44,287 nt of DNA from Solirubrobacteraceae bacterium (GTDB lineage: Bacteria; Actinomycetota; Thermoleophilia; Solirubrobacterales; Solirubrobacteraceae). The DNA lies in assembly GCA_050696955.1 (NCBI GenBank), contig JBOGYT010000037.1:1-44287 (forward strand), read 5' to 3'. Positions within the stretch are counted from its first letter, which is position 1, and every line of letters starts with the position of its first letter. Shown in pieces: positions 4,595 through 31,100 of the stretch. The translations under genes and the position numbers were made by a program. The notes beneath the pieces are model-generated. The model was not told where the DNA came from, searched no databases, and worked only from the letters and a program-made list of their open reading frames with translations.

Positions 4595-4921
4595 CTAGGT
4601 CGCGAGGCGGATCTCGATATCCACGCCCGCCGGCAGGTGGTCGAGTCGCTGGAGCGAGTCGACGGTCTTCGGCGTCGGCTGGTGGATGTCGATCAGGCGC
4701 TTGTGCGTGCGGATCTCGAAGTGCTCGCGGGAGTCCTTGTCCTTGAACGGCGAGCGGATCACGCAGTAGACGTTCTTCTCCGTCGGCAGGGGAACGGGTC
4801 CCGAGACGCTCGCGCCGGTGCGCGTCGCCGTTTCGACGATCTCCTTGGCCGCCGTCTCGATGGCCGAGTGGTCATAGGCCTTGAGGCGGATGCGGATCTT
4901 GTTCTCTGTGGTGGTGGCCAT
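4595..4921 (-). CDS. rpsJ: 30S ribosomal protein S10
   Basis: 108 aa, [11 protein letters not shown]...[11 protein letters not shown], canonical S10. Confidence 0.97.
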
Positions 4922-5019: not shown

Positions 5020-6204
<1,185 letters not shown>

Positions 6205-6449
6205 TGCGATTCGCTCCTCTGGGTCTGCGGTGAACTGGTTGAAACTATCGGATTGGCGGGGTTCGGGGCCTGTCAGCGAGGCCCCGGGCTGTGAGCAACA
6301 AAAACGGGCCCCTGGGGCCCGCGCGCACGTCCGCTTACTGCCGGTCCGTCGCGCTATGTGCTCAAGGTCCTCATCGTGAGACGTCTGCCGCCCTCAGGAT
6401 GCGCATGCGTGAGCGTGCTTCGCCCGGGAGCGGCGGCCGATGATAGCAA
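6205..6449 (-). promoter_or_regulatory. tuf promoter plus structured leader (copy A of a duplicated leader shared with fusA)
   Basis: On the minus strand there is an extended -10 TGCTATCAT (plus 6440-6448). The conserved core at 6292-6380 matches 16136-16228 at nearly every position. The core contains helix UGAGCA/UGCUCA, a GC hairpin and the hairpin CGGGCCCC-A-GGGGCCCG followed by UUUUUGU. Confidence 0.6.
6294..6321 (-). terminator. Intrinsic-terminator-like hairpin inside the tuf leader
   Basis: Minus-strand CGGGCCCCAGGGGCCCG followed by TTTTTGTTG (plus 6305-6321 stem, 6296-6304 A-run). Confidence 0.55.
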
Positions 6450-6991
6450 GCCGGATTGTGCCGTCCGCCCCGGGTGCCGGGCCGATCAGCCGTTCCGTGC
6501 AGCTCGTCGAGCTCGGCGAGGTCGACGAGGTCGCGCGGCCGGCCGGCGGCGCGCTTCATCGCCCGCAGGTGCGCGAGCGAGCACACCGGGCGCGAGCGCG
6601 TCGGACGAGATCCGCACGAGGATCCGCGCGGCACGAGCGCGTCGAACGGCGGCACGCCGGGCAGCCGGTTGAGCACCTGCACGTCCCCGTGAACGGGTGC
6701 GCAGCGCCTTACCGAGTCCCGAAGCTCACGGACCGCTGCCTCTCCCCGCTCGGTCAGATGAACGAGCGTCGCCCGCCGGTCGGATGGGTCCGGGTGCCGC
6801 TCCAGATACCCCTTCCCCTCGAGCTCGCGGATCAGATAGGTGATCGCCTGACGGCTCATCCCGGCACGCTCAGCGAGCGTCGTGACCCGCACTCCACCCT
6901 GCCAGCAGACGCCTGCTTTCCATGCGATCAGCAGTCTCCGAGCGGACCGCTCGGAGTGTTGCCACGCGCGAGAGCGAGCGTCGTGGGACAC
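6371..6991 (-). pseudogene. Chimeric ORF: MarR-type wHTH segment fused to the C-terminal remnant of a nucleotidyltransferase-like protein
   Basis: Residues ~35-95 read VTTLAERAGMSRQAITYLIRELEGKGYLERHPDPSDRRATLVHLTERGEAAV, a MarR wHTH, but the MarR C-terminal helices are missing. Residues ~100-165 read ...LNRLPGVPPFDALV...SLAHLRAMKRAAGRPRDLVDLAELDEL, which resembles nucleotidyltransferase/AbiEii-like C-termini. The 3' end overlaps the tuf leader. Confidence 0.45.
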
Positions 6992-7055
6992 GCGCGACGA
7001 GGGAGCACTCCATCAAGGTGTCGCACCGCACCTAGCGCGGTGCTACACTCGTCGG

Positions 7056-7313
7056 GTGCCCACGACCCGTCCCCGCTACACCGTGACCGATACCGGGCAG
7101 ACGGCCGAGCTGCTGGACCTGGCCCAGCAAGCATGGCCGGAGATCACCGATCGGCGCAAGCTCCTGCTGCGTCTCACGCAAGCCGGCGGCCGGGCCCTGC
7201 AGCGCGAACTCGCTGAGCAGACCACACGACGCGAACGCCAACGGGTCGGCCTCCAGCGAGCGGCGCAGCTCGTCGATATCGACGCGCTCACCGGCGACGG
7301 CGCGTGGCGCTGA
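7056..7313 (+). CDS. vapB: Type II antitoxin, VapB-like (probably leaderless, GTG start)
   Basis: An 85-aa ORF overlaps the downstream PIN gene by 10 nt. TGCTACACT (7041-7049) ends 6 nt before the GTG at 7056. Confidence 0.7.
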   Translation: MPTTRPRYTVTDTGQTAELLDLAQQAWPEITDRRKLLLRLTQAGGRALQRELAEQTTRRERQRVGLQRAAQLVDIDALTGDGAWR

Positions 7314-7672
7314 TCCTGCTCGACAAGTCCGCCTGGGTGCGAGGCGGCGCCGACCTCGTCGACTATGGCGAGCTGTGCATGTGCGCGATCACGAGGATGG
7401 AGATCCTCTACAGCGCACGCTCGGCCGACGACTTCACGACCTTGCAGCACGACCTGGACGCCTACCGCGATCTGCGCATCGATCACACGACCATCTCGGG
7501 CGCCGAAGCCGCGCAGCGTGAGCTGGCGGCGAGCGGGCAGCATCGCGCCGCACTGCCCGATCTGATCATCGGCGCATGCGCTCAACAGCACGGGGCAGAC
7601 GTCCTGCACGTCGACCGCCACTTCCACCTTCTCGCCGAGACGTTCGGCTTCCGCAGCATCCGGCTGCGGTAG
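7304..7672 (+). CDS. vapC: PIN-domain ribonuclease toxin VapC
   Basis: 122 aa with the acidic PIN residues in the expected order: LLDKS, TRMEILY, LPDLIIGACA, HVDRHF. Confidence 0.85.
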   Translation: MALILLDKSAWVRGGADLVDYGELCMCAITRMEILYSARSADDFTTLQHDLDAYRDLRIDHTTISGAEAAQRELAASGQHRAALPDLIIGACAQQHGADVLHVDRHFHLLAETFGFRSIRLR

Positions 7673-8239
7673 CGCAAGGCGGGAGGCTGCTCACTCGCGC
7701 GAATCGGAGCAGTTCGGAGGCGAGACTGTACCCATATCCCGCTTCGTCACCGTCCGGATAACGAGTCTCCCGCTGTCGCCTTGCGCGAGAACCAGCAGCG
7801 AAACCGGGCATCTGCGCGCAGCCAGCGCCGACCGGAGCTCGGCTATCGGGCGAGCGGATCGCCTTCATGTCGGCACCGGCGCGCGCCGAACTGCTTCATC
7901 GCGATGCCGCTGTTCTTAGCCCACCAGTAACGTCCATTGGCGGCGCCGTGAACGACGATTGTCCTCGAAGCCGGCGCGGTCGACGAGTGGGCAGTCCCGA
8001 TGGTGTACGACCGGGGTCGCGCGAGCCGAGTCCGTGATGACGATGCAACCGTGCGCCGCGCCTCGCCAGCAATCGAACGCGCGGACATCCAGAAGTTCAA
8101 CCAGCTCGGGAGCGGCGTTGATGCGAAAGCGGGAGTGGGGAGCCGTGCTGAGAGTCGCCGGTGCGGCGTCTGGGCTGCGAGCGATTGACGAACGCGTCGG
8201 GCGGCGGGAGTATCGGTCTAGGCAACAGAGGAGGCGACG

Positions 8240-8845
8240 ATGTCTTGGAGCGTGCGAGGTCGGTATTTCGAGAACTGCACCTGCGATGTCCCTTGTCCAT
8301 GCACCGCGTCGCTGTCGCTGGGAGCCGACTACGACCGCTGTCAGGTCGTGCTTGTCTTCCATGTTGACGCGGGCGACGTCGACGGCGTCGACGTGAGCGG
8401 GCTCACGGTGGCCGCGGTGGGTGACACGCCCAAGGTCATGACCGACGGCGACTGGCGCCTGGGCGTGCTGATCGACGCGGCCGCGACAGACGAGCAGGCA
8501 GACAAGCTCGGCGGCGTGTTCAGCGGGGCGCTGGGAGGCCCGATGGCGGCCCTCGCGCCGCTGATCGGCGAGAACCTCGGCGTCGAGCGCGTGGCTATGG
8601 AGTTCTCTTCCGAGGGCGGGCGGCACAGCGTGAGCCTGGGCGACAAGGGCAACGTCGAGGTCGAGGACGTGGTCCCCTTCGGCATCGAGACCGGCGAGCC
8701 GGCGCGCATCGTCGGAATCTTCCACCCGGTCGGAAGCGAGCTGACGATCAGCAAGGCCGGCGACTCGCAGATCAGCGCCTTCGGTCTGGAGCCCGTCCTG
8801 GCCGGCCAGTCCGGCTTCTCGACCACGTTCGCCTGGTCGGCCTGA
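8240..8845 (+). CDS. DUF1326 family protein (Cys-rich N-terminus)
   Basis: The N-terminus MSWSVRGRYFENCTCDVPCPCTAS is the hallmark of DUF1326. An SD GAGGAGG lies upstream. Confidence 0.8.
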   Translation: MSWSVRGRYFENCTCDVPCPCTASLSLGADYDRCQVVLVFHVDAGDVDGVDVSGLTVAAVGDTPKVMTDGDWRLGVLIDAAATDEQADKLGGVFSGALGGPMAALAPLIGENLGVERVAMEFSSEGGRHSVSLGDKGNVEVEDVVPFGIETGEPARIVGIFHPVGSELTISKAGDSQISAFGLEPVLAGQSGFSTTFAWSA

Positions 8846-8850
8846 CGGCG

Positions 8851-9702
8851 ATGACCGCGCTGCGGTCGCTGCCCGCCCGGCTCGAGAGCGGTCCGTACGC
8901 CGGCTGGCGGCTGGCGACCATCGGCGTGCTGCTGGTCCTCGCCGCCGCGGCGTGGGCGATCACGGGCGTGCGCATGGCCGGGATGGACGAGGGCCCCGGC
9001 ACCGATCTCGGGACACTCGGCTTCTACCTCACGAGCTGGGTCGTGATGATGGCGGCGATGATGTTCCCGTCAGTGGCCCCGCTCGTCGCCGTCTACGCCG
9101 GGCTGCAGCGCGGCCGCCGCGCGCGGGCGATGCCCGCGCCCGCCGCGGCGACGAGCTTCCTCGTCGCCGGCTATCTCCTGACATGGACGATCGCTGGTCT
9201 CGCCGCCTTCGGCCTGTTCGCGGCGGGCCGCACGCTCGTCGGTGATCAGCTGGCGTGGGACGCCGGCGGGCGCTGGGTGGCCGCAGCCGTGCTGCTTGCC
9301 GCCGCGGCCTACGAGTTCACGCCGCTGAAGCACGCCTGCCTGACGCGCTGCCGCGGCCCGCTGTCGTTCATCCTCGAGGCATGGCGCGACGGCCGGCTCG
9401 GCGCGCTGCGCATGGGGATCAAGCACGGAGCGTGGTGCGTCGGCTGCTGCTGGGCGCTGATGGCGGCACTATTCGCGCTCGGCGTGATGAGCATCGCGTG
9501 GATGGCGGTCGTGGCGCTGCTGATCGCGATCGAGAAGCTCTTGCCGTCGCGGATCGCCGCGACGCGCGCCGTCACCGCCGTGCTGGTCCTACTTGCCGTC
9601 GGCGTCGCGGCCGCGCCCGACCACATGCCCGCGTTCAGCGTGCCGCCGAGCGATGCCTCGGGTGCCGGGATGGGCCCCGGGATGTCGCCGATCGGACGCT
9701 AG
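8851..9702 (+). CDS. DUF2182 family predicted metal-binding integral membrane protein
   Basis: Multi-TM protein with VVMMAAMMFPS, KHACLTRCRGPLSF and HGAWCVGCCWALM motifs. Lies 5 nt after the DUF1326 gene. Confidence 0.8.
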   Translation: MTALRSLPARLESGPYAGWRLATIGVLLVLAAAAWAITGVRMAGMDEGPGTDLGTLGFYLTSWVVMMAAMMFPSVAPLVAVYAGLQRGRRARAMPAPAAATSFLVAGYLLTWTIAGLAAFGLFAAGRTLVGDQLAWDAGGRWVAAAVLLAAAAYEFTPLKHACLTRCRGPLSFILEAWRDGRLGALRMGIKHGAWCVGCCWALMAALFALGVMSIAWMAVVALLIAIEKLLPSRIAATRAVTAVLVLLAVGVAAAPDHMPAFSVPPSDASGAGMGPGMSPIGR

Positions 9703-9736
9703 CGCTCTGCGCGAGGCGCGAGAGCGACGCCCGATC

Positions 9737-10602
9737 CACGCGAGGCTGTCGCGCAAAGAGCGGGGTGTCGGAGTGCCGCTGCGGTTTCGGGCTACGCGGG
9801 AGGGCGAACCTCGGCGCTCGCTGGACTTGGTGTGCTCAGGCGGGTGCGGTGAAGTGTCGGTGGAGCTTGAGCAGATTGTGTGTGCTGGCCATGAGGCGCC
9901 ATTCGGTCCGTGCGGCTGATCTGCCGCGCCGGGCGAAGCGCGTGAATCCGCGGTTGTGCTTGGTGTTGCCGAAGATCGGTTCGATGAGCTGCGCGCGTTG
10001 CTTGTAGAGCGCCCTTCCGTGGTCGGTCGTCGGTCGCGATCGTTTCCTCGACGATCTCCTGCGCGATCTGCTGGTAGTCCAGCGTGCGGTCGGTTGGCGA
10101 TCGCCGCGACCTTCGTGCCGTCGATCGCGATCACGCCGACCGATGCAAGGCCAGCGTCCGCGCACAGCCCCAGCACCTCGCCGAAGAGATCCGCAAGCGC
10201 TGTCTCGTGACGCTCGATGAACCGCGCGACCGTCGCGTGATCGGGCTGCTGCTGGGCGGCGATCACACGGCACGCGACATCCTCGACACACGCCCGCTGC
10301 ATCCGCCGCGAGGAGCGCACGCCCCGCGACCAGCAATACAGCAACAGCGCCACCATCATCGACGGCTCGTATGCCGCGCGACCATGGCCATCATCACGGT
10401 AGGCGGCGTAGAACGCCGACAGATCGATCACCGCGACCGCGTCGAGAACGAACCACGCCAGATGGTCCTCGGGCAGCCACTCACGCACATCGGGCGGCAA
10501 CAGAAACGACTGCTCACGATCACACGCCAAGAAGTTGTGAGCCATACCCGAATCGTCCTAAACCGATCGGATAGCAGGCCGTTTACGCGACAGCCTCACG
10601 CG
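9737..10602 (-). mobile_element. Internally deleted IS1182/IS5-like insertion sequence bounded by imperfect 22-bp terminal inverted repeats
   Basis: CACGCGAGGCTGTCGCGCAAAG (9737-9758) matches the reverse complement of GTTTACGCGACAGCCTCACGCG (10581-10602) at 18/22 positions. These repeats enclose the transposase fragments. Confidence 0.7.
9836..10545 (-). pseudogene. IS1182-family transposase, N-terminal ~155 aa and C-terminal ~60 aa in different frames, central DDE region deleted
   Basis: The N-terminal fragment reads MAHNFLACDREQSFLLPPDVREWLPEDHLAWFV...IAIDGTKVAA (ORF 9589..10545). The C-terminal fragment reads RALYKQRAQLIEPIFGNTKHNRGFTRFARRG...NLLKLHRH (ORF 9836..10336). Confidence 0.75.
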
Positions 10603-10752
10603 AAAGGAGAAGCCCAGAGCTTCGGGACGAGTGTCCCGAGAACGCGTCAGCGACTCCTGCGTCGGCGAGGCTCCCCGTGTCTCATGTCGGCCTCATCGGG
10701 GCCCCGTAGCGTCGCCATTCGTCAAGACGGCTCGAACGACATGGAGGTATCA

Positions 10753-11526
10753 GTGAAGCTTGTCGCCCCCGCATCCCTCGCACTGCTCGCTACGGTGTCG
10801 CTGTTCGTCGGTTCTCAGCTGGTTGAAGGCGCCCCGGCTCGGTCCACTGCCCACTCGCGCGCGACCGTGCCGCTCAAGGACGCCAAGCTCAACATCGAGT
10901 ACAACGCGACGGACCACGACACCGGCTTTCAGGGGTTCGTCGACAGCGAGGGCTGGCGGCGGCTCGACATGCGCGGACCCGCCGGCAAAGTGCTGACGTT
11001 GAAGGGGCGGGGCGCGCTTGGCAAGCTGGGGCTGACCGAGCTTTTCTTTGAGACCGTCGAGCCGCAGACCGCGGACACGCCGATCAAAAGGATGCTCGCG
11101 AAGCTGCCCGCCGGGAACTACCGGATCGCCGGCCCGGCCCAGGAGAACGGCAAGCGCGCAGGCCGGACTGCGGGGACGGCGTGGCTCACGCATGACATCC
11201 CCGCGGGCCCGCGGCTCGTCTCGCCCGCGGAGGGCGCGACGGTGCCGACTCGTGGCGTCGTCGCCGACTGGGAGCCTGTGTCCAAGACGATCACCGGCAA
11301 GCCCGTAAGGATCATCGCGTACCAGCTCATCATCGAGAAGGACGTAAAGCCCCACCGTCACATGATCGGAAAGTTCGGCCTGAGCATGCACCTGCCACCC
11401 TCGGTCACCAGCATCGACGTGCCGGACGGGTTCCTCGAGCCCCGCAGCGCCTACAACTGGGAGGTCCTGGCGATCGAGCGCAGCGGCAACCAGACCCTCT
11501 CGTCCGGCTCGTTCAACACCGGATAG
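10753..11526 (+). CDS. Secreted hypothetical protein (signal peptide, no recognisable family)
   Basis: The GTG at 10753 follows GGAGG by 4 nt. The N-terminus VKLVAPASLALLATVSLFVGSQLVEGAPA is signal-like. Strong GC3 bias. The upstream part of track ORF 10084..11526 is antisense to the transposase. Confidence 0.6.
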   Translation: MKLVAPASLALLATVSLFVGSQLVEGAPARSTAHSRATVPLKDAKLNIEYNATDHDTGFQGFVDSEGWRRLDMRGPAGKVLTLKGRGALGKLGLTELFFETVEPQTADTPIKRMLAKLPAGNYRIAGPAQENGKRAGRTAGTAWLTHDIPAGPRLVSPAEGATVPTRGVVADWEPVSKTITGKPVRIIAYQLIIEKDVKPHRHMIGKFGLSMHLPPSVTSIDVPDGFLEPRSAYNWEVLAIERSGNQTLSSGSFNTG

Positions 11527-11708
11527 TGCCCTCGAGCACTGGGGGCGCTTCCGGGACGGCCCAGTCGCCGGTCGAACGTACCGCACAGCTACGCAATGCG
11601 CGAGGAGGAGCACTCGAGCGGTAGCGCTCGCACGCGGAGGGAGAAGCGGCTGGTGCAATGGCTCGCCGAGGACGCGTCCAGAGGTAGGGCGCGTGCAGCG
11701 TGCGAGCC

Positions 11709-11993
11709 CTATTGCAACGTCAGGTCCGCGTCTTCAAAGGCGCGTGAGCGCATTTCCGTCACGGCGTCGAGCAAACCGCTCGCTCGCAACGCTTCGCCGT
11801 GCTCAGGCTGTGACTGATAGTCGTCGCGCGCCTCAGAGGACTCCCAGAACGTGGCCACGACAACGCCGCTCTCCGTTGGCGCGACCATTCGGGCCAACAC
11901 GACCGGCGTCGGACGGCGAGCTTCAAGGTCCGCTGCCGCGGCGAGCAGCGCGTCGGTCGGACCGTCCATCTCCAGAATGACCAGCACACCCAT
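11709..11993 (-). CDS. Small hypothetical protein, possibly ABM/Dabb-like fold
   Basis: The ATG at 11993 is preceded by GAGGAGG. The 94-aa product starts MGVLVILEMDGPTDALLAAAADLEARRP... The rest of track ORF 11709..12488 looks non-coding. Confidence 0.5.
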   Translation of the reverse strand: MGVLVILEMDGPTDALLAAAADLEARRPTPVVLARMVAPTESGVVVATFWESSEARDDYQSQPEHGEALRASGLLDAVTEMRSRAFEDADLTLQ

Positions 11994-12296
11994 GTGAACC
12001 TCCTCGAGGGTCGACCAGTTGCGGCTGACCGTACCCGCGATGAGACAGCACGAGCAAACATCGGGCACGATCCCCCTGACACACGGATCTCGACGGCGGG
12101 CGGCGACGTCAAAGCTCGATCCGTGTCGCCGCGACGGCATCGCTGATTCGACACTCCGCGAAGTTGCTGCAGCGCCGTTCGAGCGCCCGTCGCGGACAGC
12201 AGCGCTACTCCCCCGGCTCGAAAATCCGTACGCGGCGCCGCGTGTGTAGCCGAAGCGTGGTCGCACGCTGTCGGCCGCGCGCCGCACGGTCGATGT

Positions 12297-12500
12297 GTGG
12301 CAAGGAAGTTTCGAGAGGTTCGGCGAGCCCTGTCGGACGCCTGCTGGACGAAGGTGCGGCAAGCTGGCTCGCACGAGACGTGGCGCAGCCAGGACGGCGC
12401 GAGATCGATCACGGTGGCCGGCTAGGAGTCCGATACCGTTCCCGTCGGGACCCTTGGCGCCATCCGCCGGGCGACAGGACTGGAGCATCTGCGAGGAAGG
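12297..12500 (+). pseudogene. hicA: hicA-like mRNA interferase toxin interrupted by an in-frame TAG (12423-12425)
   Basis: The frame starting at GTG 12297 reads VARKFREVRRALSDACWTKVRQAGSHETWRSQDGARSITVAG*ESDTVPVGTLGAIRRATGLEHL. It carries the GSH motif and the GTL..I...GL C-terminal motif of the HicA family. It is not listed as one ORF in the track because of the stop. Confidence 0.6.
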
Positions 12501-12706
12501 ATTATCTCGTCATCTACGAACGCGCTGAAGACGGTAGCTGGGGCGGGCACAGCCCCGACGTGGAGGGAGTGTTCGCGCTGGCGAAGACGCGCGAGGAGAC
12601 CGAGGTCCGTATGGCCGAGGCTCTGACAGCACACTTGGCGTACCTGCGCGATCAGGGGCAGCCCACGCCCGAGCCGCGCACCGATGCCGGTCGCGTCGCG
12701 GCCTGA
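12500..12706 (+). pseudogene. hicB: HicB-family antitoxin domain lacking a canonical start codon
   Basis: DYLVIYERAEDGSWGGHSPDVEGVFALAKTREETEVRMAEALTAHLAYLRDQGQPTPEP matches the HicB/UPF0150 N-domain. The position where Met is expected holds AAG, and there is no ATG/GTG/TTG nearby in frame. Confidence 0.5.
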
Positions 12707-13205
12707 TCTGACGTCGCCTTCCACGGAGCGAGTACGGCTCCGCCGACGCCGTACCCGCTGAACCTACACCGACGATCGCCGGGACTCGCTGTCCCTCCGC
12801 GCGAGAAGCGAGCGCGGTGACGATCGGCGCAAAACGCACCCGACCTCTGCTGGCGACGCGGCCTGCGGCGCTCGCTGGCACCTGGGCGTGTCCCGCATAG
12901 CCCGCCTCTACCGCGACATGTCACCGAACGAGGCTTGCGCGGGGCATTGGGTGGCACGGGGTCGTGGAGATCACGGTCGGCGCCCAGCTTCGTCACGTTG
13001 TGCGGTTCCGCTCGGCGCATGTCGGGGTTCGCCCTACGCGATGATCTGGGAGCTGAATGCGTGTTCCATGTCGAGAAGCGCTGACCGGCTCCGCTCATCA
13101 GATGAAGGGCCGCGAGCGGCGCGGCCCACAACACCAGGAGACCGCGATGCCGAGGTATCTGCTGCACGACGAGTACACGGCGCAGGAGCTGACCGGAGGC
13201 CGTTC

Positions 13206-13643
13206 ATGACCGTCCAGCGCCTGGAGCACATCGGCATCGTCGTCGACGACCTCGCGGCGGCGACCGCGTTCTTCGCCGCACTCGGGCTCGAATTGGAGGG
13301 CGAGGCGTCCGTCGAGGGCGGCTCGGTGGACCGCATCAACGGGCTCGAGGGCGTGCGCGCGGATATCGTGATCCTGCGGACCCCGGATGGCAACGGCAAG
13401 GTCGAGCTGGCCAAGTACCGCTCGCCCTCGTACGAAGGCGACGACGGGCCGGCGCCGGCCAACGCCCCGGGCATCCGCCACATCCTCTTCGTCGTCGACG
13501 ACATCGAGGCATCCCTGGCCGGCCTGCGAGCGCATGGCGGCGAGCTGGTCGGCGAGCTGGTGAACTACGAGAACAGCTACTGGCTCTGCTACGTGCGCGG
13601 CCCGGCCGGGATCATCGTCGAGCTGGCGGAGAAGATCAGCTGA
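13206..13643 (+). CDS. VOC family protein (glyoxalase/bleomycin-resistance/dioxygenase fold)
   Basis: The ATG at 13206 follows GGAGG. The product reads MTVQRLEHIGIVVDDLAAATAFFAALGLELEGE...IRHILFVVDDIEASLAGLRAHG. Confidence 0.85.
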   Translation: MTVQRLEHIGIVVDDLAAATAFFAALGLELEGEASVEGGSVDRINGLEGVRADIVILRTPDGNGKVELAKYRSPSYEGDDGPAPANAPGIRHILFVVDDIEASLAGLRAHGGELVGELVNYENSYWLCYVRGPAGIIVELAEKIS

Positions 13644-13990
13644 TGGGTGTCCCATTGTTCGGTCAGGAGCACGTCGCCCGATACCGCGAAACCGACGGCG
13701 AGAAGGCCACGACTGGCAGGGCGCGACGGTATTGCTGCTCACCACCACCGGGCGCAACTCGGGTGCCAAGCGGACCACGCCGCTGATCTACCAACGGCAC
13801 GAGACGACTACCTAGTGGTGGCCTGAAACGGCGGCGGCAATCCACCCGGCTGGTTCCTCTACCTTCAAGACGATCCGATCGTGGCCGTGCAGGTCAAGGC
13901 CGATCACCACAGCGACGTCGGCGCCGCTGCACGATCCGCTGAGGAGGGAGTTCGGGGCGGTCAGCCAGCCGGGATGCGTACGACGAGTAC
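13643..13990 (+). pseudogene. Deazaflavin (F420)-dependent nitroreductase family gene (DUF385/Ddn-like) with at least 2 frameshifts and an in-frame TGA
   Basis: Family-typical segments lie in three different frames: MGVPLFGQEHVARYRETDG, then EGHDWQGATVLLLTTTGRNSGAKRTTPLIYQRH, then DDYLVVA*NGGGNPPGWFLYLQDDPIVAVQVKADH (TGA at 13824-13826). Confidence 0.7.
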
Positions 13991-14011: not shown

Positions 14012-16111
<2,100 letters not shown>

Positions 16112-16297
16112 GGCTTCTCTTGATCTCTATTCGGTCCCGAGCAACAAAAAACGGGCCCCTCGGGCCCGCGCGTACGTCCGGTGTCTTGCCGGTCCGACGC
16201 GCTATGTGCTCGAGGACTCCATCGTCAGGCGCAACTCCTGCTCCGGAGCGGGCGCTACCAAGCGCATCGGCCAGCGAAGCGGTGTTCGACTATAGCA
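16112..16297 (-). promoter_or_regulatory. fusA promoter plus structured leader (copy B of the leader shared with tuf)
   Basis: On the minus strand there is an extended -10 TGCTATAGT (plus 16289-16297). The conserved core at 16136-16228 contains helix CUCGAGCA/UGCUCGGG, a GC hairpin and CGGGCCC-GAG-GGGCCCG followed by UUUUUUGU. No minus-strand gene lies upstream, so the promoter must be here. Confidence 0.6.
16141..16168 (-). terminator. Intrinsic-terminator-like hairpin inside the fusA leader
   Basis: Minus-strand CGGGCCCGAGGGGCCCG followed by TTTTTTGTTG (plus 16152-16168 stem, 16145-16151 A-run). Confidence 0.55.
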
Positions 16298-16328
16298 AAG
16301 GGCCGGGCCTCTTCCGGCCCGATTTCCC

Positions 16329-16778
16329 ATGACCCACAAGGTGTTTGCGGGGGTCGCCGCACTGGGCGCAGCGCTGCTCGTGGCGGCGGAATTCAGCCCG
16401 GTCTACGAGGTCGTCGTCGGCTCGCTGGCGATCCCGCGCCGCGAGGTCGACGGCGCCGACAACCACTCGTACGCGCTGTTGATCGTCGCCGTCCTCGCGC
16501 TGCCGATGGCGCTCGGCGCGCTACGCGGCGCACGACCCGCAGCGCTCGCGCTCGTCGCGCTTGGAGGGACGGCGCTGTTCGTCGCGCTCGCGCTCGACCT
16601 GCCCGACGCCCGCGCGACCGGCCGGCTGCCTGAATCGGTCGCTTATGAGGACGCGCGGGCGCGAGCCTCCACGGGACTGTACGTCGAGCTTGCGGGCGGC
16701 GGGCTGCTCATCATCGCCGGCGCCGGCCTGCTGGCGCGCCCCTCTTCCACGCGCGCGAACCCGCAGCGCACGCCCTGA
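16329..16778 (+). CDS. Small integral membrane protein (about 4 TM), function unknown
   Basis: 149 aa with hydrophobic segments (AGVAALGAALLVAAEF, ALLIVAVLALPMALGAL, ALALVALGGTALFVALAL, GLLIIAGAGLL). Divergent from fusA. Confidence 0.6.
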   Translation: MTHKVFAGVAALGAALLVAAEFSPVYEVVVGSLAIPRREVDGADNHSYALLIVAVLALPMALGALRGARPAALALVALGGTALFVALALDLPDARATGRLPESVAYEDARARASTGLYVELAGGGLLIIAGAGLLARPSSTRANPQRTP

Positions 16779-17149: not shown

Positions 17150-18418
17150 ATGAAGATTGGAATCGTCGGACTCGGCTACGTCGGGCTGCCGCTGGCGGTC
17201 GCGTTCGCCGAGGCAGGCCACGACATCGTCGGCGTGGACTCCGACAACCGGCGCGCGACCGCGATCGCCGCCGGCTCGAGCCACGTCGAGGACATCAGCG
17301 ACGCGCGGCTGCGCGCCGCGCTCGGCCGCATCGCGACCACGACGCGGATGGCGCGGCTGGCGCGGACCGACGCGATCATCGTCTGCGTCCCGACGCCGCT
17401 GACCGCCAACGGCGTGCCCGACCTCAGCGCGATGATGGACGCGATCACCGGTCTTGCCGGGATCGTCCAGGCCGGTCAGCTCGTCGTGCTCGAGTCGACG
17501 ACCTACCCGGGCACGACGCGCGAGCGCGTCGCCCCGATCCTCGAGGAGGCCGGCCTCGTCGCCGGCCGCGACTTCAACCTCGCGTTCTCGCCCGAGCGCG
17601 TTGACCCGGGCCGCACCGACTTCACGCTGCGGACGACGCCGAAGGTCGTGGGCGGGCTGACGGAGGCGTGCGGGGACCGTGCCGAGGCGCTGTATCGCGA
17701 GGTATGCGACACGATTGTGCGCGTCACGACCCCGGAGTCGGCCGAGCTCACGAAGCTCCTCGAGAACATCTTCCGCTCGGTCAACATCGCGCTCGTCAAC
17801 GAGCTGTGGATGCTCGCCGAGCGCATGGGCATCGACATCCACGAGGTCATCGATGCCGCCGACACGAAGCCGTACGGCTTCATGCGCTTCGACCCGGGGC
17901 CCGGGATGGGCGGCCACTGCCTGCCGGTCGACCCCTTCTACCTGACCTGGAAGGCGCGCGAGTACGGCCTGTCGACCGAGTTCATCGAGCTCGCGGGCAA
18001 GGTCAACCACCGGATGCCGGAGTTCTGCGTCGACAAGATCCAGAGCGCGCTCAACGATCTCGGCAAGCCGGTCCGCGGTGCGCGCGTGCTGATCCTCGGA
18101 GTCGCCTACAAGCCCGGCGTTGCGGACGTTCGCGAATCGCCCGCGCTGCGGATCATCGCCAAGCTCGCCGAGCAGGGGGCCGACGTCGTCTACCACGACC
18201 CGCACGTCGCCGAGCTGCGGGCGCAGGGGCTGCGCCACACGCCGCTGCAGGAGGCGCTTCAGAACTGCGACGTCGCCGTGATCGCGACCGCCCACCCCGG
18301 CGTGCCGCATCACGAGATCGCGGCGACCGTCCCGACCGTGGACCTGCGGGCCGCGCTGCGCAAGAGCCCCGCCCGCGCCGCCGATCCGCGGACGAGCCTC
18401 GAGGCGGTGGACGCATGA
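17150..18418 (+). CDS. Nucleotide-sugar 6-dehydrogenase (UDP-glucose/GDP-mannose dehydrogenase family; looks like the UDP-HexNAc dehydrogenase subgroup)
   Basis: MKIGIVGLGYVGLPLAVAFAEAGHDIVGVD Rossmann N-terminus, 422 aa. A purine-rich SD lies upstream. Confidence 0.88.
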   Translation: MKIGIVGLGYVGLPLAVAFAEAGHDIVGVDSDNRRATAIAAGSSHVEDISDARLRAALGRIATTTRMARLARTDAIIVCVPTPLTANGVPDLSAMMDAITGLAGIVQAGQLVVLESTTYPGTTRERVAPILEEAGLVAGRDFNLAFSPERVDPGRTDFTLRTTPKVVGGLTEACGDRAEALYREVCDTIVRVTTPESAELTKLLENIFRSVNIALVNELWMLAERMGIDIHEVIDAADTKPYGFMRFDPGPGMGGHCLPVDPFYLTWKAREYGLSTEFIELAGKVNHRMPEFCVDKIQSALNDLGKPVRGARVLILGVAYKPGVADVRESPALRIIAKLAEQGADVVYHDPHVAELRAQGLRHTPLQEALQNCDVAVIATAHPGVPHHEIAATVPTVDLRAALRKSPARAADPRTSLEAVDA

Positions 18419-26770: not shown

Positions 26771-28176
26771 GCGCGCCGCGCGTCGGGATCATCGGTGGCG
26801 GAGTCCTCGGGACGGTGCTCGCGCTGCGCCTGCGCGAGGCCGGAGCCGAGGTGACGGTGCTCGAGCGCGCCGCGACCGTCGGCGGCCTCGCCGGGACGAT
26901 GGACTTCGGCGGCCACACCGTCGATCGCTTCTACCACGTGATCTTGCCGTCCGACGAGCGGATGGTGCAGCTCGCCCACGAAGTCGGGCTCGGCGATCAA
27001 CTGCGCTTCAATCCCGTCGGCGCCGGCTTCCTGGCCGGCGGTGAGCTGCACGACTTCAACGGCATCGGCGACTTCCTGCGCTTCGCACCGCTGCGCCCGT
27101 GGCAGCGCGCCCGGCTGGCCTGGTTCGTCGCCTACTGCCAGCTGCGCTCGGGCTACGACGGCCTCGAGGACGTGCCGCTCGAGCGCTGGCTGCGACGCCA
27201 CTGCGGCCGCGGCGTCGTCGAGCAAATGTGGAAGCCGCTGCTGAACACGCGCTTTGACTCCGACTGGAACGAGCTACCGGCGACGTATCTGTGGGCCCGC
27301 ACGCGCCGCATGTCGGGCGCGCGGACCGGCCGCGGACGCGGCGAGGAGATGGGCTGCATCATCGGCGGCCACCAGCGGCTGTTCGACGCGCTCGCGGCGA
27401 AGGCGCGCAAGCACGGCGTCAAGTTCGAGCTCGGCGCCGCCGTCGAGGGTCTCGCGCTCGCCGAAGACGGGCGCGTCGAGGGCGTGCGGGTGGCCGGCGA
27501 GACGGCTCGGTTCGACCTCGTCATCCCGACGCTCCAGCCGCCGGCCCTGCGCCACCTTCTGCCGCCGAAGCTCGATCACCTGCTCGCCGCCTATCCGCAG
27601 CGGTTCATGGGCGTCGTCTGCCTCGTCTTGAAGGTGCGCCGCTCGCTGACGCCCTACTACGCGGTAAACATCTGCGACCCGACACCGATCACGACCGTCG
27701 TCGAGACGTCGCACGTGCTTGGCACGGAGCACACCGACGGGCTGCGTCTCATCTACGTGCCGAAGTACTGCGACCCATCGGCTCCCGAGCAGGACGAGGA
27801 TCCGCAGTCGCTCTACGACCGTTTCACGGCGGCGCTCGCACGCGCCGTCCCATCCTTCTCGCATGACGACGTCGTCGAATGGACGGTGCAGCGCAGCCGT
27901 CTGGTCGAGCCAGTCCACGCGGTCGGCACCAAGCCGCGCGTGGCACCGGTGTGGCCGGGGGTCCCCGGGCTGGCGCTCGCGTCGGCGTCGCAGGTCTATC
28001 CACGTCTGCTCAACGGTGAGTCGGTCGTGGAGCTCGCCGAGACGGTCGCCGCTCAAGCGGTGCAGCGTCTCGGTCTGTCTTCGGGGGCACCGCCGCGTGC
28101 GGTGCCGGAGGTAGGAATCCACAGCGACGAGAGTCGCGTCCCGGAGGTCGTCCCATGTGCCGCCGCACCACCCTGA
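26767..28176 (+). CDS. NAD(P)/FAD-dependent oxidoreductase (amine-oxidase/PPO-like fold)
   Basis: MSAPRVGIIGGGVLGTVLALRLREAGAEVTVLERAATVGGLAG dinucleotide-binding motif. The ATG at 26767 overlaps the wecB stop. Confidence 0.8.
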   Translation: MSAPRVGIIGGGVLGTVLALRLREAGAEVTVLERAATVGGLAGTMDFGGHTVDRFYHVILPSDERMVQLAHEVGLGDQLRFNPVGAGFLAGGELHDFNGIGDFLRFAPLRPWQRARLAWFVAYCQLRSGYDGLEDVPLERWLRRHCGRGVVEQMWKPLLNTRFDSDWNELPATYLWARTRRMSGARTGRGRGEEMGCIIGGHQRLFDALAAKARKHGVKFELGAAVEGLALAEDGRVEGVRVAGETARFDLVIPTLQPPALRHLLPPKLDHLLAAYPQRFMGVVCLVLKVRRSLTPYYAVNICDPTPITTVVETSHVLGTEHTDGLRLIYVPKYCDPSAPEQDEDPQSLYDRFTAALARAVPSFSHDDVVEWTVQRSRLVEPVHAVGTKPRVAPVWPGVPGLALASASQVYPRLLNGESVVELAETVAAQAVQRLGLSSGAPPRAVPEVGIHSDESRVPEVVPCAAAPP

Positions 28177-31100
28177 TACACGTTCCGCGACGGATCAAGC
28201 TGACGCTCCTGGGTCTGGTGCTCGTCCTCGTGCCGGCGCTTCCCGTGCTGCCCGCGAGCGGTGCTCCCGCGGCGCCCGTGGGCGTCACGGCGATCGCGCT
28301 GAACGGCCAGGCCAACATCTCCTGGAAGGCGGTGTCCGGCGCCACGAGCTACCGCATCTTCCGCTCGTCCACCATCAGCGGGACCGCCACGCAGGTCGGC
28401 ACGTCCTCCACGACGACGTTCACGCACACCGGGCTCACGAACGGGACGGTCGGCTTCTACACCGTGCGGGCGGTCGACGTGCTCGGCCAGGGGCCGGCAT
28501 CCGCTGCCGCGCAGGTCACGCCCCTCGCCCAGACCTGCTCGACGGGCAACCAGGTGGTGGTCGAGAACTGCTTCGCCGGCACGACCGCGTGGAAGAGCAC
28601 CGGCGGCCCGCAGGTCCAGTCGGGCGGCATCGAGGGCTTTGCGGCGAAGACGTCGATCAACCGCGGCGAGTCCGTCGACCTCAAGGTCAACACCCAGGAC
28701 GCGAAGCCCTACCGGGTGGAGATCTATCGCACCGGCTGGTACGACGGCGACCAGGGCCGGCTGATCTCGGTCATCCCGGGGCTGGTCGGCGACCTGCAGA
28801 GCGCGTGCAACGTGCCGAGCGGCAACACGGGCCTGACCGACTGCTCGAACTGGACGGCCACCTCGACGCTGACCACGTCGGCCAGCTGGCCCAGCGGCGT
28901 CTACATCCTGCGCCTCGTGCGCACCGACAACGGCGCTGACAGCCACATCCTGCTGACGGTCCGCGACGACGCGCGCACGCCCGCGGTGAGCTACATCGTC
29001 CCCGTCGCGCACTATGCCGCCTACAACAACTACGGCGGCAGGTCGCTGTACGACTTCAACTCGAACGGCTCGACGACCGTGGCCGGCACCGCGCGCGCCG
29101 TCAAGGTCTCCCTCGACCGTCCCCAGAACCTCCTGTCGCGCGACTGGTACACGGACATCGACATCCAGAACGTGGGCTGGCTCGAGCGCGAGGGCTACGA
29201 CCTCAGCTACGCGACGAGCGTCGACCTCCAGGCCGGCATCCCGAACCTCAACAGCCGCGAGGCGATCGTGTCCGGCAGCCACGACGAGTACTGGTCCTCG
29301 CAGATGCGCACCGCGGTGACGAACGCCCGCAACGCCGGCACCGGCGTGCTGTTCCTCGGCGCCAACGGCGTGTACTGGAAGATCCGCTACGAGTCGAGCC
29401 CGGTCTCGTCGGACACGAACCGCGTGGTCGTCTGTTACAAGTCGACGCAGAGCGGCGGTCCCGATCCGCTCGGCCCCACCGGCACGTGGCGCGATCCGGC
29501 CGGCGCGAACCAGCCCGAGAACGCGCTCATGGGCGTGCAGTACATCGGCGACAACGACTTCGGCTACTCCCCGCTGCAGGTGTCGGCCGCCCAGGGCAAG
29601 CACCGCCTGTGGCGCTACACGCCGCTGGGGTCGCTGGCCGCCGGGACCACCGACTCCATCGGCCAGAACCTCGTCGGGTGGGAGTGGGATGCGCGCGCCG
29701 CCAACGGCGCCGAGCCCGCGGGCATCTCCACGGTGGCGAGCACGCCCGTGACCGGCAGCATCCTGCAGGATGCCGGACGCGTCTACGCCCCCGGGTCCGC
29801 GGTCCAGCACAGCACGTACTACAAGTACGGGGCGTCCGGCGGGGTCGTGTTCGCCTCCGGTACGAACCACTGGAGCCGCGGGCTGGGGATGAACGAGGAC
29901 AACGTCGGCGAGCCCAACACGATCATCATGCAGGCGACGGCCAACGCGCTGCAGGACATGGGCGCGCGGCCGACCACGCCGGACAACGTGACGCTCGACG
30001 GCACGGCGGCGCCGACGGTCAGCACGCGGGCACCGGTGCCCGGCGCCACGAACGTGGCGACCACGACCGCCGTCACCGCGACCTTCGATAGTCCCGTCGA
30101 TCCCTCCACGGTGACGAACGCGAGCTTCACGCTCACGCGTCCAGGCGGCACGACGGTGGCGGCGACCGTCAGCTACAGCGATACGACGAAGACCGCCACG
30201 CTGACGCCCACCGGCCAGCTCGACGGGACGACGACGTATACCGCGACGCTCACCACCGCCATCAAGAACTGGAACGGCCAGGCCCTGGCGGCAGCCTCCA
30301 CGTGGAACTTCACGACGCGCAGCGGCAGCCCGCCGACCGTCACCGGTCGCACACCGGCGCCGGGCGCGACCGCGATCTCCTTCAACGAGAAGCCGACCGT
30401 CACGTTCGACCGCGACATGGCCGCATCGACGATCACCAACACGAGCTTCACGCTGACGCCGAGCGGCGGGACCGCCGTCGCCGCGACGGTGGCCTACGAC
30501 GGCGCGACGCGGACGGCGACGCTGACGCCGAGCGCGCTGCTCAACGGCTCGACGACCTACACCGCCCGCGTGACCACCGCGGCGCAGGCGACCGACGGCG
30601 CCCCGCTCGCGAGCGACGTCACGTGGTCGTTCACGACGAAGGCGTCGCTCGGACCGTTCACGGTCACCGATCGCGCGCCCGCCCCGCTGTCGAGCGGCAT
30701 CTCGCCGTCGACCACGGTCCGCGCCGTGTTCTCGCGCAGCGCCGATCCCGCGACGCTCACGCCGTCGACGTTCACGCTGCAGAACTCGGGCGGCGCCTCG
30801 GTGAGCGCCACCGTCGCCTACAACGACGCGACGAAGACCGCGACGCTGACGCCGAGCGCCCCGCTCACGCTCATGACGTCCTACACGGCGACGCTGACGA
30901 CCGGCGTCACGGGCGTCGAGGACGGCCAGCCGCTGAGCTCGCCCGTGACGTGGACGTTCACGACGGCGACGAGCCCGCCGCCGCCACCGGCGGTGACGTC
31001 AACCAGCCCGCTGGCAAGCGCGACCGGCGTCGCGCTCAACAGCCAGATCCGGGCGACGTTCGATCGCTCGCTCGATCCCGCGACGGTCACGAGCGAGACC

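Follow-up and report, generated by a model that had tools for sequence, protein, structure and literature searches.

Amino-acid leader-peptide attenuators (trp, his, thr, pheST) contain runs of regulatory codons that match the respective pathway, and they switch between defined alternative helices (1:2, 2:3 and 3:4). The S10 leader of E. coli, with its adjacent hairpins HD and HE, is subject to an attenuation that depends on L4 and NusA. For the rplJL leader of B. subtilis, a transcription attenuation mediated by L10(L12)4 is established (PMC4538822). The whiB7 leader of mycobacteria and other Actinomycetota consists of a distal promoter, a translated upstream open reading frame (uORF) and a Rho-independent terminator, and its attenuation is mediated by the uORF: efficient translation results in termination, and poor translation permits an antiterminator and thus read-through (PMC10274678). 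In streptococci, the six-codon uORF msrDL controls the ABC-F translation factor MsrD via an intrinsic terminator, and MsrD feeds back negatively by clearing the ribosome that is held at the stop codon, which lowers its own expression (PMC10314930). Premature terminators have also been predicted in the str operon region as 'rpsL-leader' elements, some of them directly before fusA, including one in streptococci, with S7 as the proposed binder (Naville and Gautheret 2010, PMC2965389), and the same paper cites paired rpsL/fusA structures in Pelagibacter. Here we describe a leader that lies before fusA, the gene of EF-G, and, as a second copy, before tuf, the gene of EF-Tu, in a 44,287-nucleotide stretch of a Solirubrobacteraceae bacterium (GenBank assembly GCA_050696955.1, contig JBOGYT010000037.1, positions 1 to 44,287), which in the following is called the window.

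The leader combines a promoter box, a 5'-proximal hairpin (P0), a six-codon uORF, a GC-rich hairpin (P2) and a hairpin that resembles an intrinsic terminator (P3), and it may be a translation-coupled, leader-peptide type transcription attenuator of the fusA-tuf-rpsJ (EF-G/EF-Tu/S10) unit. This interpretation is proposed tentatively, at somewhat less than an even chance. In its working principle, the leader is closest to whiB7 and msrDL, and in its genomic role it is closest to the S10 leader of E. coli and the rplJL leader of B. subtilis. The literature searches turned up no account of a comparable fusA leader.

The fusA leader, its anatomy and its distribution

Both elements are read from the minus strand, as are all leader features given below, and they lie at the coordinates at which a sequence-only reading of the window had placed an element common to the tuf and fusA upstream regions. 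This element is real: the cores (6293-6380 before tuf and 16139-16228 before fusA) are identical at 77 of 90 positions (86%), and a covariance model (R1), made from 73 homologues of other organisms with both window copies left out, finds both of them. With filters off, the R1 search of the window gives these two sites with 103.4 bits (E 6e-25) and 85.4 bits (E 2.7e-20), and the third-best match has an E of 0.27. Also the extended -10 boxes that had been claimed for both copies, TTGCTATCAT for tuf (6440-6449) and TTGCTATAGT for fusA (16289-16298), are well founded, as they are the sole two matches to TTGCTATMRT in the whole window, where 0.01 would be expected by chance. A comparison of the whole window with Rfam 15, which the reading had suggested as a check for a known family, gave no match at gathering thresholds, and up to E 10 only noise was obtained around both copies (models of small nucleolar RNAs, microRNAs and small RNAs (sRNAs), 9-18 bits against thresholds of 56-88).

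The homologues were all gathered by exact DNA patterns from conserved blocks, in one scan with an exact pattern on species-representative genomes and in a second one with a terminator-confined pattern on metagenomes. More than 120 distinct leader variants were gathered in this way, nearly all immediately 5' of fusA. The genome scan gave 28 loci from Solirubrobacterales, an order in the class Thermoleophilia (Actinomycetota), which are labelled Conexibacteraceae, Solirubrobacteraceae or Baekduia and all have the leader directly before fusA; the metagenome scan gave 99 loci, nearly all before fusA. Two complete chromosomes were scanned, and the pattern matched twice in OY970068.1 (fusA, tuf) and once in OY970159.1. 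With R1, a covariance-model check being among those that the sequence-only reading had proposed, there is one match per locus, except for the window and the relatives L001 and L131, which have two, the fusA copy and a copy before tuf. Among the genome, metagenome and R1-searched loci, the leader was never found away from fusA or tuf. A dispersed repeat of the REP or MITE type (repetitive extragenic palindrome, miniature inverted-repeat transposable element) was considered as well and was ruled out by a repeat finder, the pattern scans and the covariance-model searches, with one or two copies in a fixed context. Matches of the first pattern in Bradyrhizobium and related organisms (L011, L019, L021, L030, L031, L035) were discarded as chance, since they lie in a conserved coding region and have a gap of 28 nucleotides (nt) instead of 21.

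Homologues of its EF-G place the window among Solirubrobacteraceae-like bacteria, within the order Solirubrobacterales. The gene order in relatives is rpsL-rpsG, two unrelated genes, and then fusA-tuf-rpsJ-rplC-rplD and onward. Most relatives have fusA-tuf-rpsJ without interruption, and in L001, L002 and L004 the contiguous run continues through rplC and rplD, so that the leader heads that operon. In L001, the closest relative (EF-G 97% identical), the element is found before fusA and also inside the 298-nt fusA-tuf spacer, whereas L002 and L004 (EF-G about 90% identical) have it before fusA only, and their fusA-tuf spacer is 92 nt long. Copies of the tuf type occur in the window, L001, L069, L077, L131 and probably L111, and their P2 type is that of one sub-clade. 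A leader that EF-Tu and EF-G genes share in general, as had been supposed at the outset, is thus not what is found: the fusA leader is present in every relative sampled and the tuf copy only in a narrow lineage. From these sequence comparisons, we conclude that the element is the leader of fusA throughout Solirubrobacterales with the fusA copy being ancestral, and that the tuf copy is a lineage-restricted duplicate of promoter and leader that was placed into the fusA-tuf spacer. A segmental duplication, which the sequence-only reading had named as a possible source of the similarity, therefore accounts for the tuf copy, but not for the ancient and conserved fusA copy.

In 118 of 119 homologous leaders, the extended -10 box (TGCTATAGT or TGCTATCAT) is found 58-68 nt upstream of the uORF, and the homologous leaders contain no -10-like hexamer for a second promoter or for a leaderless start at the uORF. 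The approximately 70 nt that separate the box from the core had been regarded as poorly conserved, and with 61% identity between the two copies this is correct as far as the letters are concerned, but the stretch is occupied by the covarying hairpin P0 (16240-16280 in the fusA leader, with an outer stem GCUUCG/CGGAGC and an apical stem GCGC/GCGC). The folds of diverse single homologues agree on a three-part hairpin, and RNAalifold with 50 diverse sequences gives seven P0 pairs, all seven with compensatory changes, and the loop retains CUCAY. The P0 hairpin of the tuf copy (6388-6434) is derived from predicted folds and was included in the P0 covariation alignment. On the other side of the fusA -10 box, a GC hairpin, GGGCCGGAAGAGGCCCGGCCC (16300-16320, minus strand), directly abuts the box in the divergent intergenic region shared with a DUF7937-like gene (16329-16778, plus strand), and relatives have a different GC-rich, hairpin-like sequence at this site.

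The most conserved feature of the element is the uORF, which was missing from the sequence-only description. In the fusA leader it reads ATG GAG TCC TCG AGC ACA TAG (MESSST, 16202-16222), in a frame that is kept in the homologues, and in the tuf copy, by direct reading, ATG AGG ACC TTG AGC ACA TAG (MRTLST, 6354-6374). The metagenome search pattern left this stretch unconstrained, and nevertheless ATG-N15-TAG/TAA is found in 122 of 123 distinct variants, with TAG as the stop codon in 116 and TAA in six. The commonest peptides are METSST (49 variants) and MDTSST (18 variants). Outside of the part that is fixed by the pattern, an alignment of 117 sequences has six invariant columns, and these are all three bases of the start codon, the TA of the stop codon, and another A. 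Synonymous changes occur (ACA/ACG, AGC/AGT, GAG/GAA, GAT/GAC, CGT/CGC, TCG/TCA), and in 115 of 122 variants codon 2 encodes an acidic residue, with all four Asp and Glu codons in use. The frame is also kept in the tuf-type copies of L001, L069, L077 and L131. At its 3' end, the uORF adjoins P2, and it overlaps the 5' strand of a further helix, P1.

The sequence-only reading had folded the core into P1, P2 and P3, of which P2 and P3 have proven sound. P2 (16168-16202 in the fusA leader; 6321-6354 in the predicted fold of the tuf copy) starts with a pair that uses the G of the uORF stop codon. The folds of 102 distinct segments converge on one three-segment hairpin with a mean energy of -15.9 kcal/mol (z -2.0). 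On a plain MAFFT alignment of 117 cores, a misaligned apical part of P2 left RNAalifold with P3 alone, and this alignment was therefore replaced by a gapless subset (A3) and a model-based alignment (A4). In A4, 87.2% of the cells pair, and double-sided changes are seen in nine pairs, of which seven belong to P2. With 0.100, the covariation score is above the 0.065 +/- 0.004 of shuffles, none of 500 reaching it, and above the 0.011-0.040 of slid-partner controls; A4 is biased towards the model, and the gapless A3 points in the same direction, more weakly. The apical and internal loops of P2 vary freely among the variants. A mimicry of the sarcin-ricin loop via GGACCGG was dismissed, since this P2 sequence is specific to the window's clade.

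P3 and its U-run begin straight after P2 without a spacer. In both window copies it is a hairpin of eight pairs, seven of them G-C, which is followed by T5-T6: GGGCCC-GAG-GGGCCC with G-U6-G-UU before fusA (16143-16167) and GGGCCC-CAG-GGGCCC with G-U5-G-UU before tuf (6297-6320). In a terminator scan that covered 40 kb of the window, these two are the only strong canonical terminator-like sites, and the remaining matches are weak, no better than those in shuffled sequence. The sites lie 32 nt (fusA) and 93 nt (tuf) upstream of the start codons. Across homologues, fusA starts 25-45 nt after the U-run, and a promoter would not fit in between. The central proposal for both genes, a structured 5' leader that has a promoter of its own and contains a hairpin of the intrinsic-terminator type, thus stands, with termination at P3 being predicted. 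The fusA leader of L131 (4432-4543, minus strand) has an altered terminator base (GUGGGCCC...GGGCCCCAUUUUUUU); it was missed by the pattern scan and was found by the covariance model only, so P3 does vary beyond the pattern-selected set. A BoxA-like reading of the U-rich tract was given up, as the interruption of the U-run shifts between clades.

P1 is more restricted. It pairs GAGCA within the uORF with UGCUC just past the U-run (16207-16211 with 16139-16143 before fusA, and 6359-6363 with 6293-6297 in the predicted fold of the tuf copy), and it is perfect in the window's clade. It covaries to GACCA/UGGUC in four sequences and to GGGCA/UGCCC in three, but in 49 of 95 sequences the centre of these five base pairs is an A.C mismatch, and the outer pairs are mostly unpaired, so that a family-wide P1 helix is ruled out and the helix is to be regarded as clade-specific. 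The same holds for the compensatory change on which the earlier argument for structure had relied, U-A (6364/6292) in the tuf copy against C-G (16212/16138) in the fusA copy: it does exist in the sequence, but the pair is unpaired in 51 of 73 family members.

Proposed attenuation by the uORF and competing explanations

Two properties of the leader point to attenuation, namely the short reading frame upstream and the terminator-like P3 before the gene with no promoter in between. As known systems that join a short leader reading frame to an intrinsic terminator operate by ribosome-mediated attenuation, such a mechanism is proposed here as well. Since there is no room for a second promoter, fusA can be expected to be expressed by read-through only, and a gene that is positioned behind the best terminator of the region and requires read-through calls for control. 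Transcription would start a few nt past the extended -10 box, and the emerging RNA would fold P0. The uORF, which lacks a Shine-Dalgarno sequence, would then be exposed, its stop codon supplying the first base of the GC-rich P2, and P3 with the U-run would follow. The signal would be the occupancy of the uORF by ribosomes or their progress on it, which would set the share of polymerases that terminate at P3.

Such a control could act in two directions. In the first, whiB7-like direction, the uORF RNA CCUCGAGC, when not translated, would pair with the 5' arm and loop of P3, GCCCGAGG, and thus form an antiterminator. Efficient translation of the uORF would remove this pairing and let the terminator form, and spare translational capacity would in consequence lower the synthesis of EF-G, EF-Tu and ribosomal proteins. 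In the second, MsrDL-like direction, a ribosome delayed at the stop codon or before P2, as might happen when one of the EF-G-dependent steps, translocation or recycling, slows down, would hinder P3 and cause read-through, which would constitute a homeostatic feedback. The whiB7-like direction is slightly preferred. CCUCGAGC is complementary to GCCCGAGG at seven of eight positions in 62 of 103 variants, with a duplex energy z of -1.55, and GAUGG with CCGUU is a further possible antiterminator pairing. Ensemble folding gives P3 a mean probability of 0.80 in the free leader and of 0.96-0.99 once a ribosome footprint covers the uORF. The pairing of CCUCGAGC with GCCCGAGG would also explain the conserved terminator loop GAG and the conservation of the uORF at the nucleotide level. 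Two other antiterminators have been ruled out, GCGCCCGC in P0 against GCGGGC in P3, because this stretch belongs to the P0 stem, and CCUCGG of the P2 3' strand against CCGAGG of P3, because it is present in some clades only.

Several observations weigh against a translation-coupled attenuator. In no clade is there a Shine-Dalgarno sequence before the uORF, and the predicted accessibility of its AUG (0.47) is average and thus uninformative. The third positions of codons 3-6 are almost invariant, which indicates that the conservation is largely at the RNA level and that its cause could be non-coding. In L082 (JAABUN010000024.1, 11148-11258, minus strand), the fusA leader is shorter by about 47 nt and has lost the uORF together with the 5' half of P2, while the 3' half of P2, P3 and the U-run are retained; this variant may stem from an assembly error, or else it shows that the leader can do without the uORF and still tolerate the terminator. 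That P3 is kept in all homologues is in part imposed by the search patterns, although its loop was free to vary in them and is nevertheless conserved, being GAG in most. As to the antiterminator, covariation among the variants supports none. The first position of the P3 loop is not G in 12 variants and the partner in the uORF compensates once, and the METPST clade has uncompensated mismatches in this pairing. For both copies in the window, the terminator fold is favoured over the antiterminator fold by 4-8 kcal/mol, and P3 has a probability of 1.0 at equilibrium. For the MsrDL-like direction, it counts that the predicted P3 is not lowered when a ribosome placed at the stop codon masks P2, so that this direction would need a steric effect.

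It is, with these reservations, necessary to ask which other explanations would fit the same leader, and the one with the most appreciable, if still minor, chance is control by a protein. A product of the operon would bind P2/P3 or the single-stranded AUGGAGACCUCGAGCACAUAG and modulate P3, the leader being a protein-mediated attenuator or translational operator in which the AUG...UAG is incidental; candidate binders are L4 or S10, S7 from the neighbouring rpsL-rpsG, and EF-G itself. That the operon continues into rpsJ-rplC-rplD and more ribosomal protein genes is in line with this, as is the conservation at the nucleotide level, which reaches the third codon positions and the P3 loop, and two adjacent hairpins of which the second is a terminator recall HD-HE of the E. 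coli S10 leader. On the other hand, the Rfam families of ribosomal-protein leaders give no match, the apical and internal loops of P2, as the usual recognition sites, vary freely, and a protein would leave unexplained why an ATG and an in-frame stop codon 15 nt further on are the most invariant positions and why the stop changes from TAG to TAA only. Precedents do exist in the predicted 'rpsL-leader' attenuators, one of them before streptococcal fusA, that have been linked to S7 (PMC2965389), and in the attenuation by a ribosomal protein that is established for B. subtilis rplJL (PMC4538822). Rather unlikely is a constitutive role, in which the terminator is leaky and unregulated and either P0 and the P1-P2-P3 junction mainly protect the highly expressed mRNA from decay that depends on the 5' end, or a terminated transcript of about 150 nt acts in trans as a small RNA. 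P0 does begin only a few nt from the predicted 5' end like 5' stabiliser hairpins, the element has its own promoter and terminator as an sRNA gene would have, L082 retains the terminator without the uORF, and equilibrium predictions for the window copies have P3 formed. Yet no other fusA promoter exists in the 25-45 nt past the U-run, and a strong, unregulated terminator before the gene of one of the most abundant proteins is hard to rationalise; mere stability would not account for the ATG-N15-stop frame and the conserved P3 loop, and among the loci scanned the element never occurs away from fusA or tuf.

The two remaining explanations are much weaker. The metabolite riboswitch that had been considered for this element, with P1-P2-P3 as the aptamer for GTP, ppGpp or another nucleotide, is very improbable. 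The downstream genes encode GTPases, and for the window's clade a three-way junction with conserved joining strands (CAUA, GU5-6GU) can be drawn, but the central mismatch of P1 in about half of the family and its mostly unpaired outer pairs do not agree with a closing helix, there is no match to an Rfam riboswitch, and the P2 loops vary freely. Furthermore, the terminator would itself be an arm of the junction and the closing helix lies beyond the U-run, so that ligand binding could not influence termination, because the aptamer would close only after the U-run had been transcribed. That the element is a repeat without function, or was left behind by a mobile element or a recent segmental duplication, has next to no probability. 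The tuf copy is a lineage-restricted duplicate and an open reading frame (ORF) with a transposase domain lies in the DNA between the two copies, but the fusA copy, whose helices covary, occurs in all members that were sampled from several families, there are one or two copies per genome at a constant place, and the tuf-type copies form a conserved group of their own that retains the uORF frame. For the fusA copy, this explanation is contradicted and thereby excluded.

Within the translation-coupled attenuator that we favour, it is a separate and clearly doubtful point whether the leader senses translational capacity directly, that is free ribosomes and/or EF-G-dependent translocation and recycling, via a six-codon uORF that lacks a Shine-Dalgarno sequence, is pressed against a GC-rich hairpin and would set the read-through of the terminator. 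If this should be true, the transcription of EF-G, EF-Tu and the S10/spc ribosomal proteins would be under a homeostatic feedback, which would replace or supplement the protein-specific autogenous repressors that are known from E. coli.

The tuf copy and the neighbouring genes

The fusA gene of the window (14012-16111, minus strand) encodes an EF-G of 699 amino acids with the Pfam domains GTP_EFTU, EFG_III, EFG_IV and EFG_C, and its ATG lies 32 nt past P3 and the 3' strand of P1. A Shine-Dalgarno sequence of fusA is not recognisable in most clades (16112-16138, minus strand, in the window; the spacers of L005-L137 are C-rich or AU-rich), and tuf has GAGGAG. The tuf gene (5020-6204, minus strand; EF-Tu, 394 amino acids) is followed by rpsJ (4595-4921) and the S10 operon, as assigned by Pfam and by synteny in relatives. 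Look-ups of the exact EF-Tu and EF-G proteins of the window gave no match.

In the window, fusA is split from the tuf promoter by about 7.5 kb (6371-13778) that are absent where relatives have fusA adjoining tuf. This stretch contains an ORF with a DUF772 transposase domain (9589-10545, minus strand), a PpoB2 copper chaperone gene (8851-9702, plus strand), a glyoxalase gene (12888-13643, plus strand) and a MarR-like ORF, and the similarity to L001 picks up again exactly at the tuf -10 box. It looks like a mobile-element-associated insertion that has split the operon. The duplicate of promoter and leader before tuf would explain why tuf can still be expressed after its separation from fusA. The MarR-like ORF (6371-6991, minus strand; 206 amino acids, helix-turn-helix at residues 31-74) runs through the tuf promoter and P0, and its stop codon TGA (6373-6371) overlaps the ATG of the uORF (6374-6372) as ATGA. 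The long C-terminal tail of this ORF could have arisen artefactually at the insertion junction, or it could couple the two reading frames.

Downstream of the leader copy, the 3' part of the tuf 5' untranslated region (6205-6292, minus strand) corresponds to the ancestral fusA-tuf spacer, which is conserved in L001, L002 (12100-12195) and L131 (1940-2060, minus strand) with a hairpin, a conserved CGAUAGUUUCAACCAGUUCACCG motif and a Shine-Dalgarno sequence. The hairpin is GC-rich and has no U-run; after it, a conserved CGAUAGUUUCA(A/U)CCAGUUCA(C/U)CG and then the strong Shine-Dalgarno sequence GAGGAG follow, and the spacer can be regarded as a second conserved element. Two further observations concern more distant parts of the window. 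A gene for a UDP-glucose/GDP-mannose dehydrogenase (17150-18418, plus strand) is inverted relative to L001 (8162-9385), which indicates a further local rearrangement. An ORF of 1593 amino acids (28155-32936) contains five tandem repeats of about 321-330 nt that are 65-73% identical (30106-32086, plus strand), and these probably encode repeated protein domains.

Relation to known leaders and biological meaning

The whiB7 leader belongs to the same phylum and has the same order of promoter, uORF and terminator before the gene, and its termination logic is the one of the preferred direction. Its uORF, however, is much longer, variable in sequence and rich in Ala codons, and it controls a transcription factor, whereas the uORF of the fusA leader has six codons with near-invariant nucleotides, stands before genes of the translation machinery and is combined with a candidate antiterminator that lacks covariation support. 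The two leaders have no sequence similarity and are not homologous. With msrDL, the fusA leader has in common the six codons and the terminator-like hairpin between the uORF and the gene of a translation factor, and the ribosome that acts at the stop codon is the model for the second direction proposed. In that system, the uORF has a strong ribosome-binding site, encodes an unrelated peptide, MYLIFM, and ends with UAA, a macrolide is needed, and the stalled ribosome directly overlaps the terminator. In the fusA leader, in contrast, P2, a hairpin of 35 nt, sets the stop codon apart from the terminator, a Shine-Dalgarno sequence is absent, and nothing points to a drug.

Like the S10 and rplJL leaders, the fusA leader heads a large operon of ribosomal protein genes and has a terminator hairpin that directly follows another hairpin, and the autogenous attenuation that is known for those two is proposed here, too. 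A uORF is absent from the S10 and rplJL leaders, and what binds them is a ribosomal protein; here, fusA and tuf come first in the unit and there is no sequence or Rfam match. The 'rpsL-leader' and Pelagibacter elements are similar insofar as they are predicted attenuators near fusA and as similar elements can precede two genes of one operon, but the 'rpsL-leader' elements belong to other phyla, share no sequence or structure with the leader described here and have no conserved uORF. With the attenuators of trp, his, thr and pheST, the fusA leader shares the short leader reading frame that is followed by a terminator before the structural genes; its Thr and Ser codons, however, are not evidently linked to EF-G, and for an alternative helix there is a candidate only. 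The principle of attenuation is known, and what appears to be new is a leader with uORF and putative terminator that would govern genes of elongation factors and ribosomal proteins and that is conserved across Solirubrobacterales.

To our knowledge, it is largely unknown outside a few model bacteria how the synthesis of elongation factors and ribosomal proteins is matched to demand, and the regulators of E. coli are narrowly distributed. In Solirubrobacterales, a compact, order-wide leader pairs an invariant mini-ORF with a canonical terminator that is rare in a high-GC actinobacterial genome. It also provides a clean natural case of regulatory duplication, as promoter and leader were copied before tuf, after which inserted DNA could divide the operon. 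Should the mini-ORF serve as the sensor, transcription of the translation machinery would in these bacteria be under the machinery's own control, through the occupancy by ribosomes.

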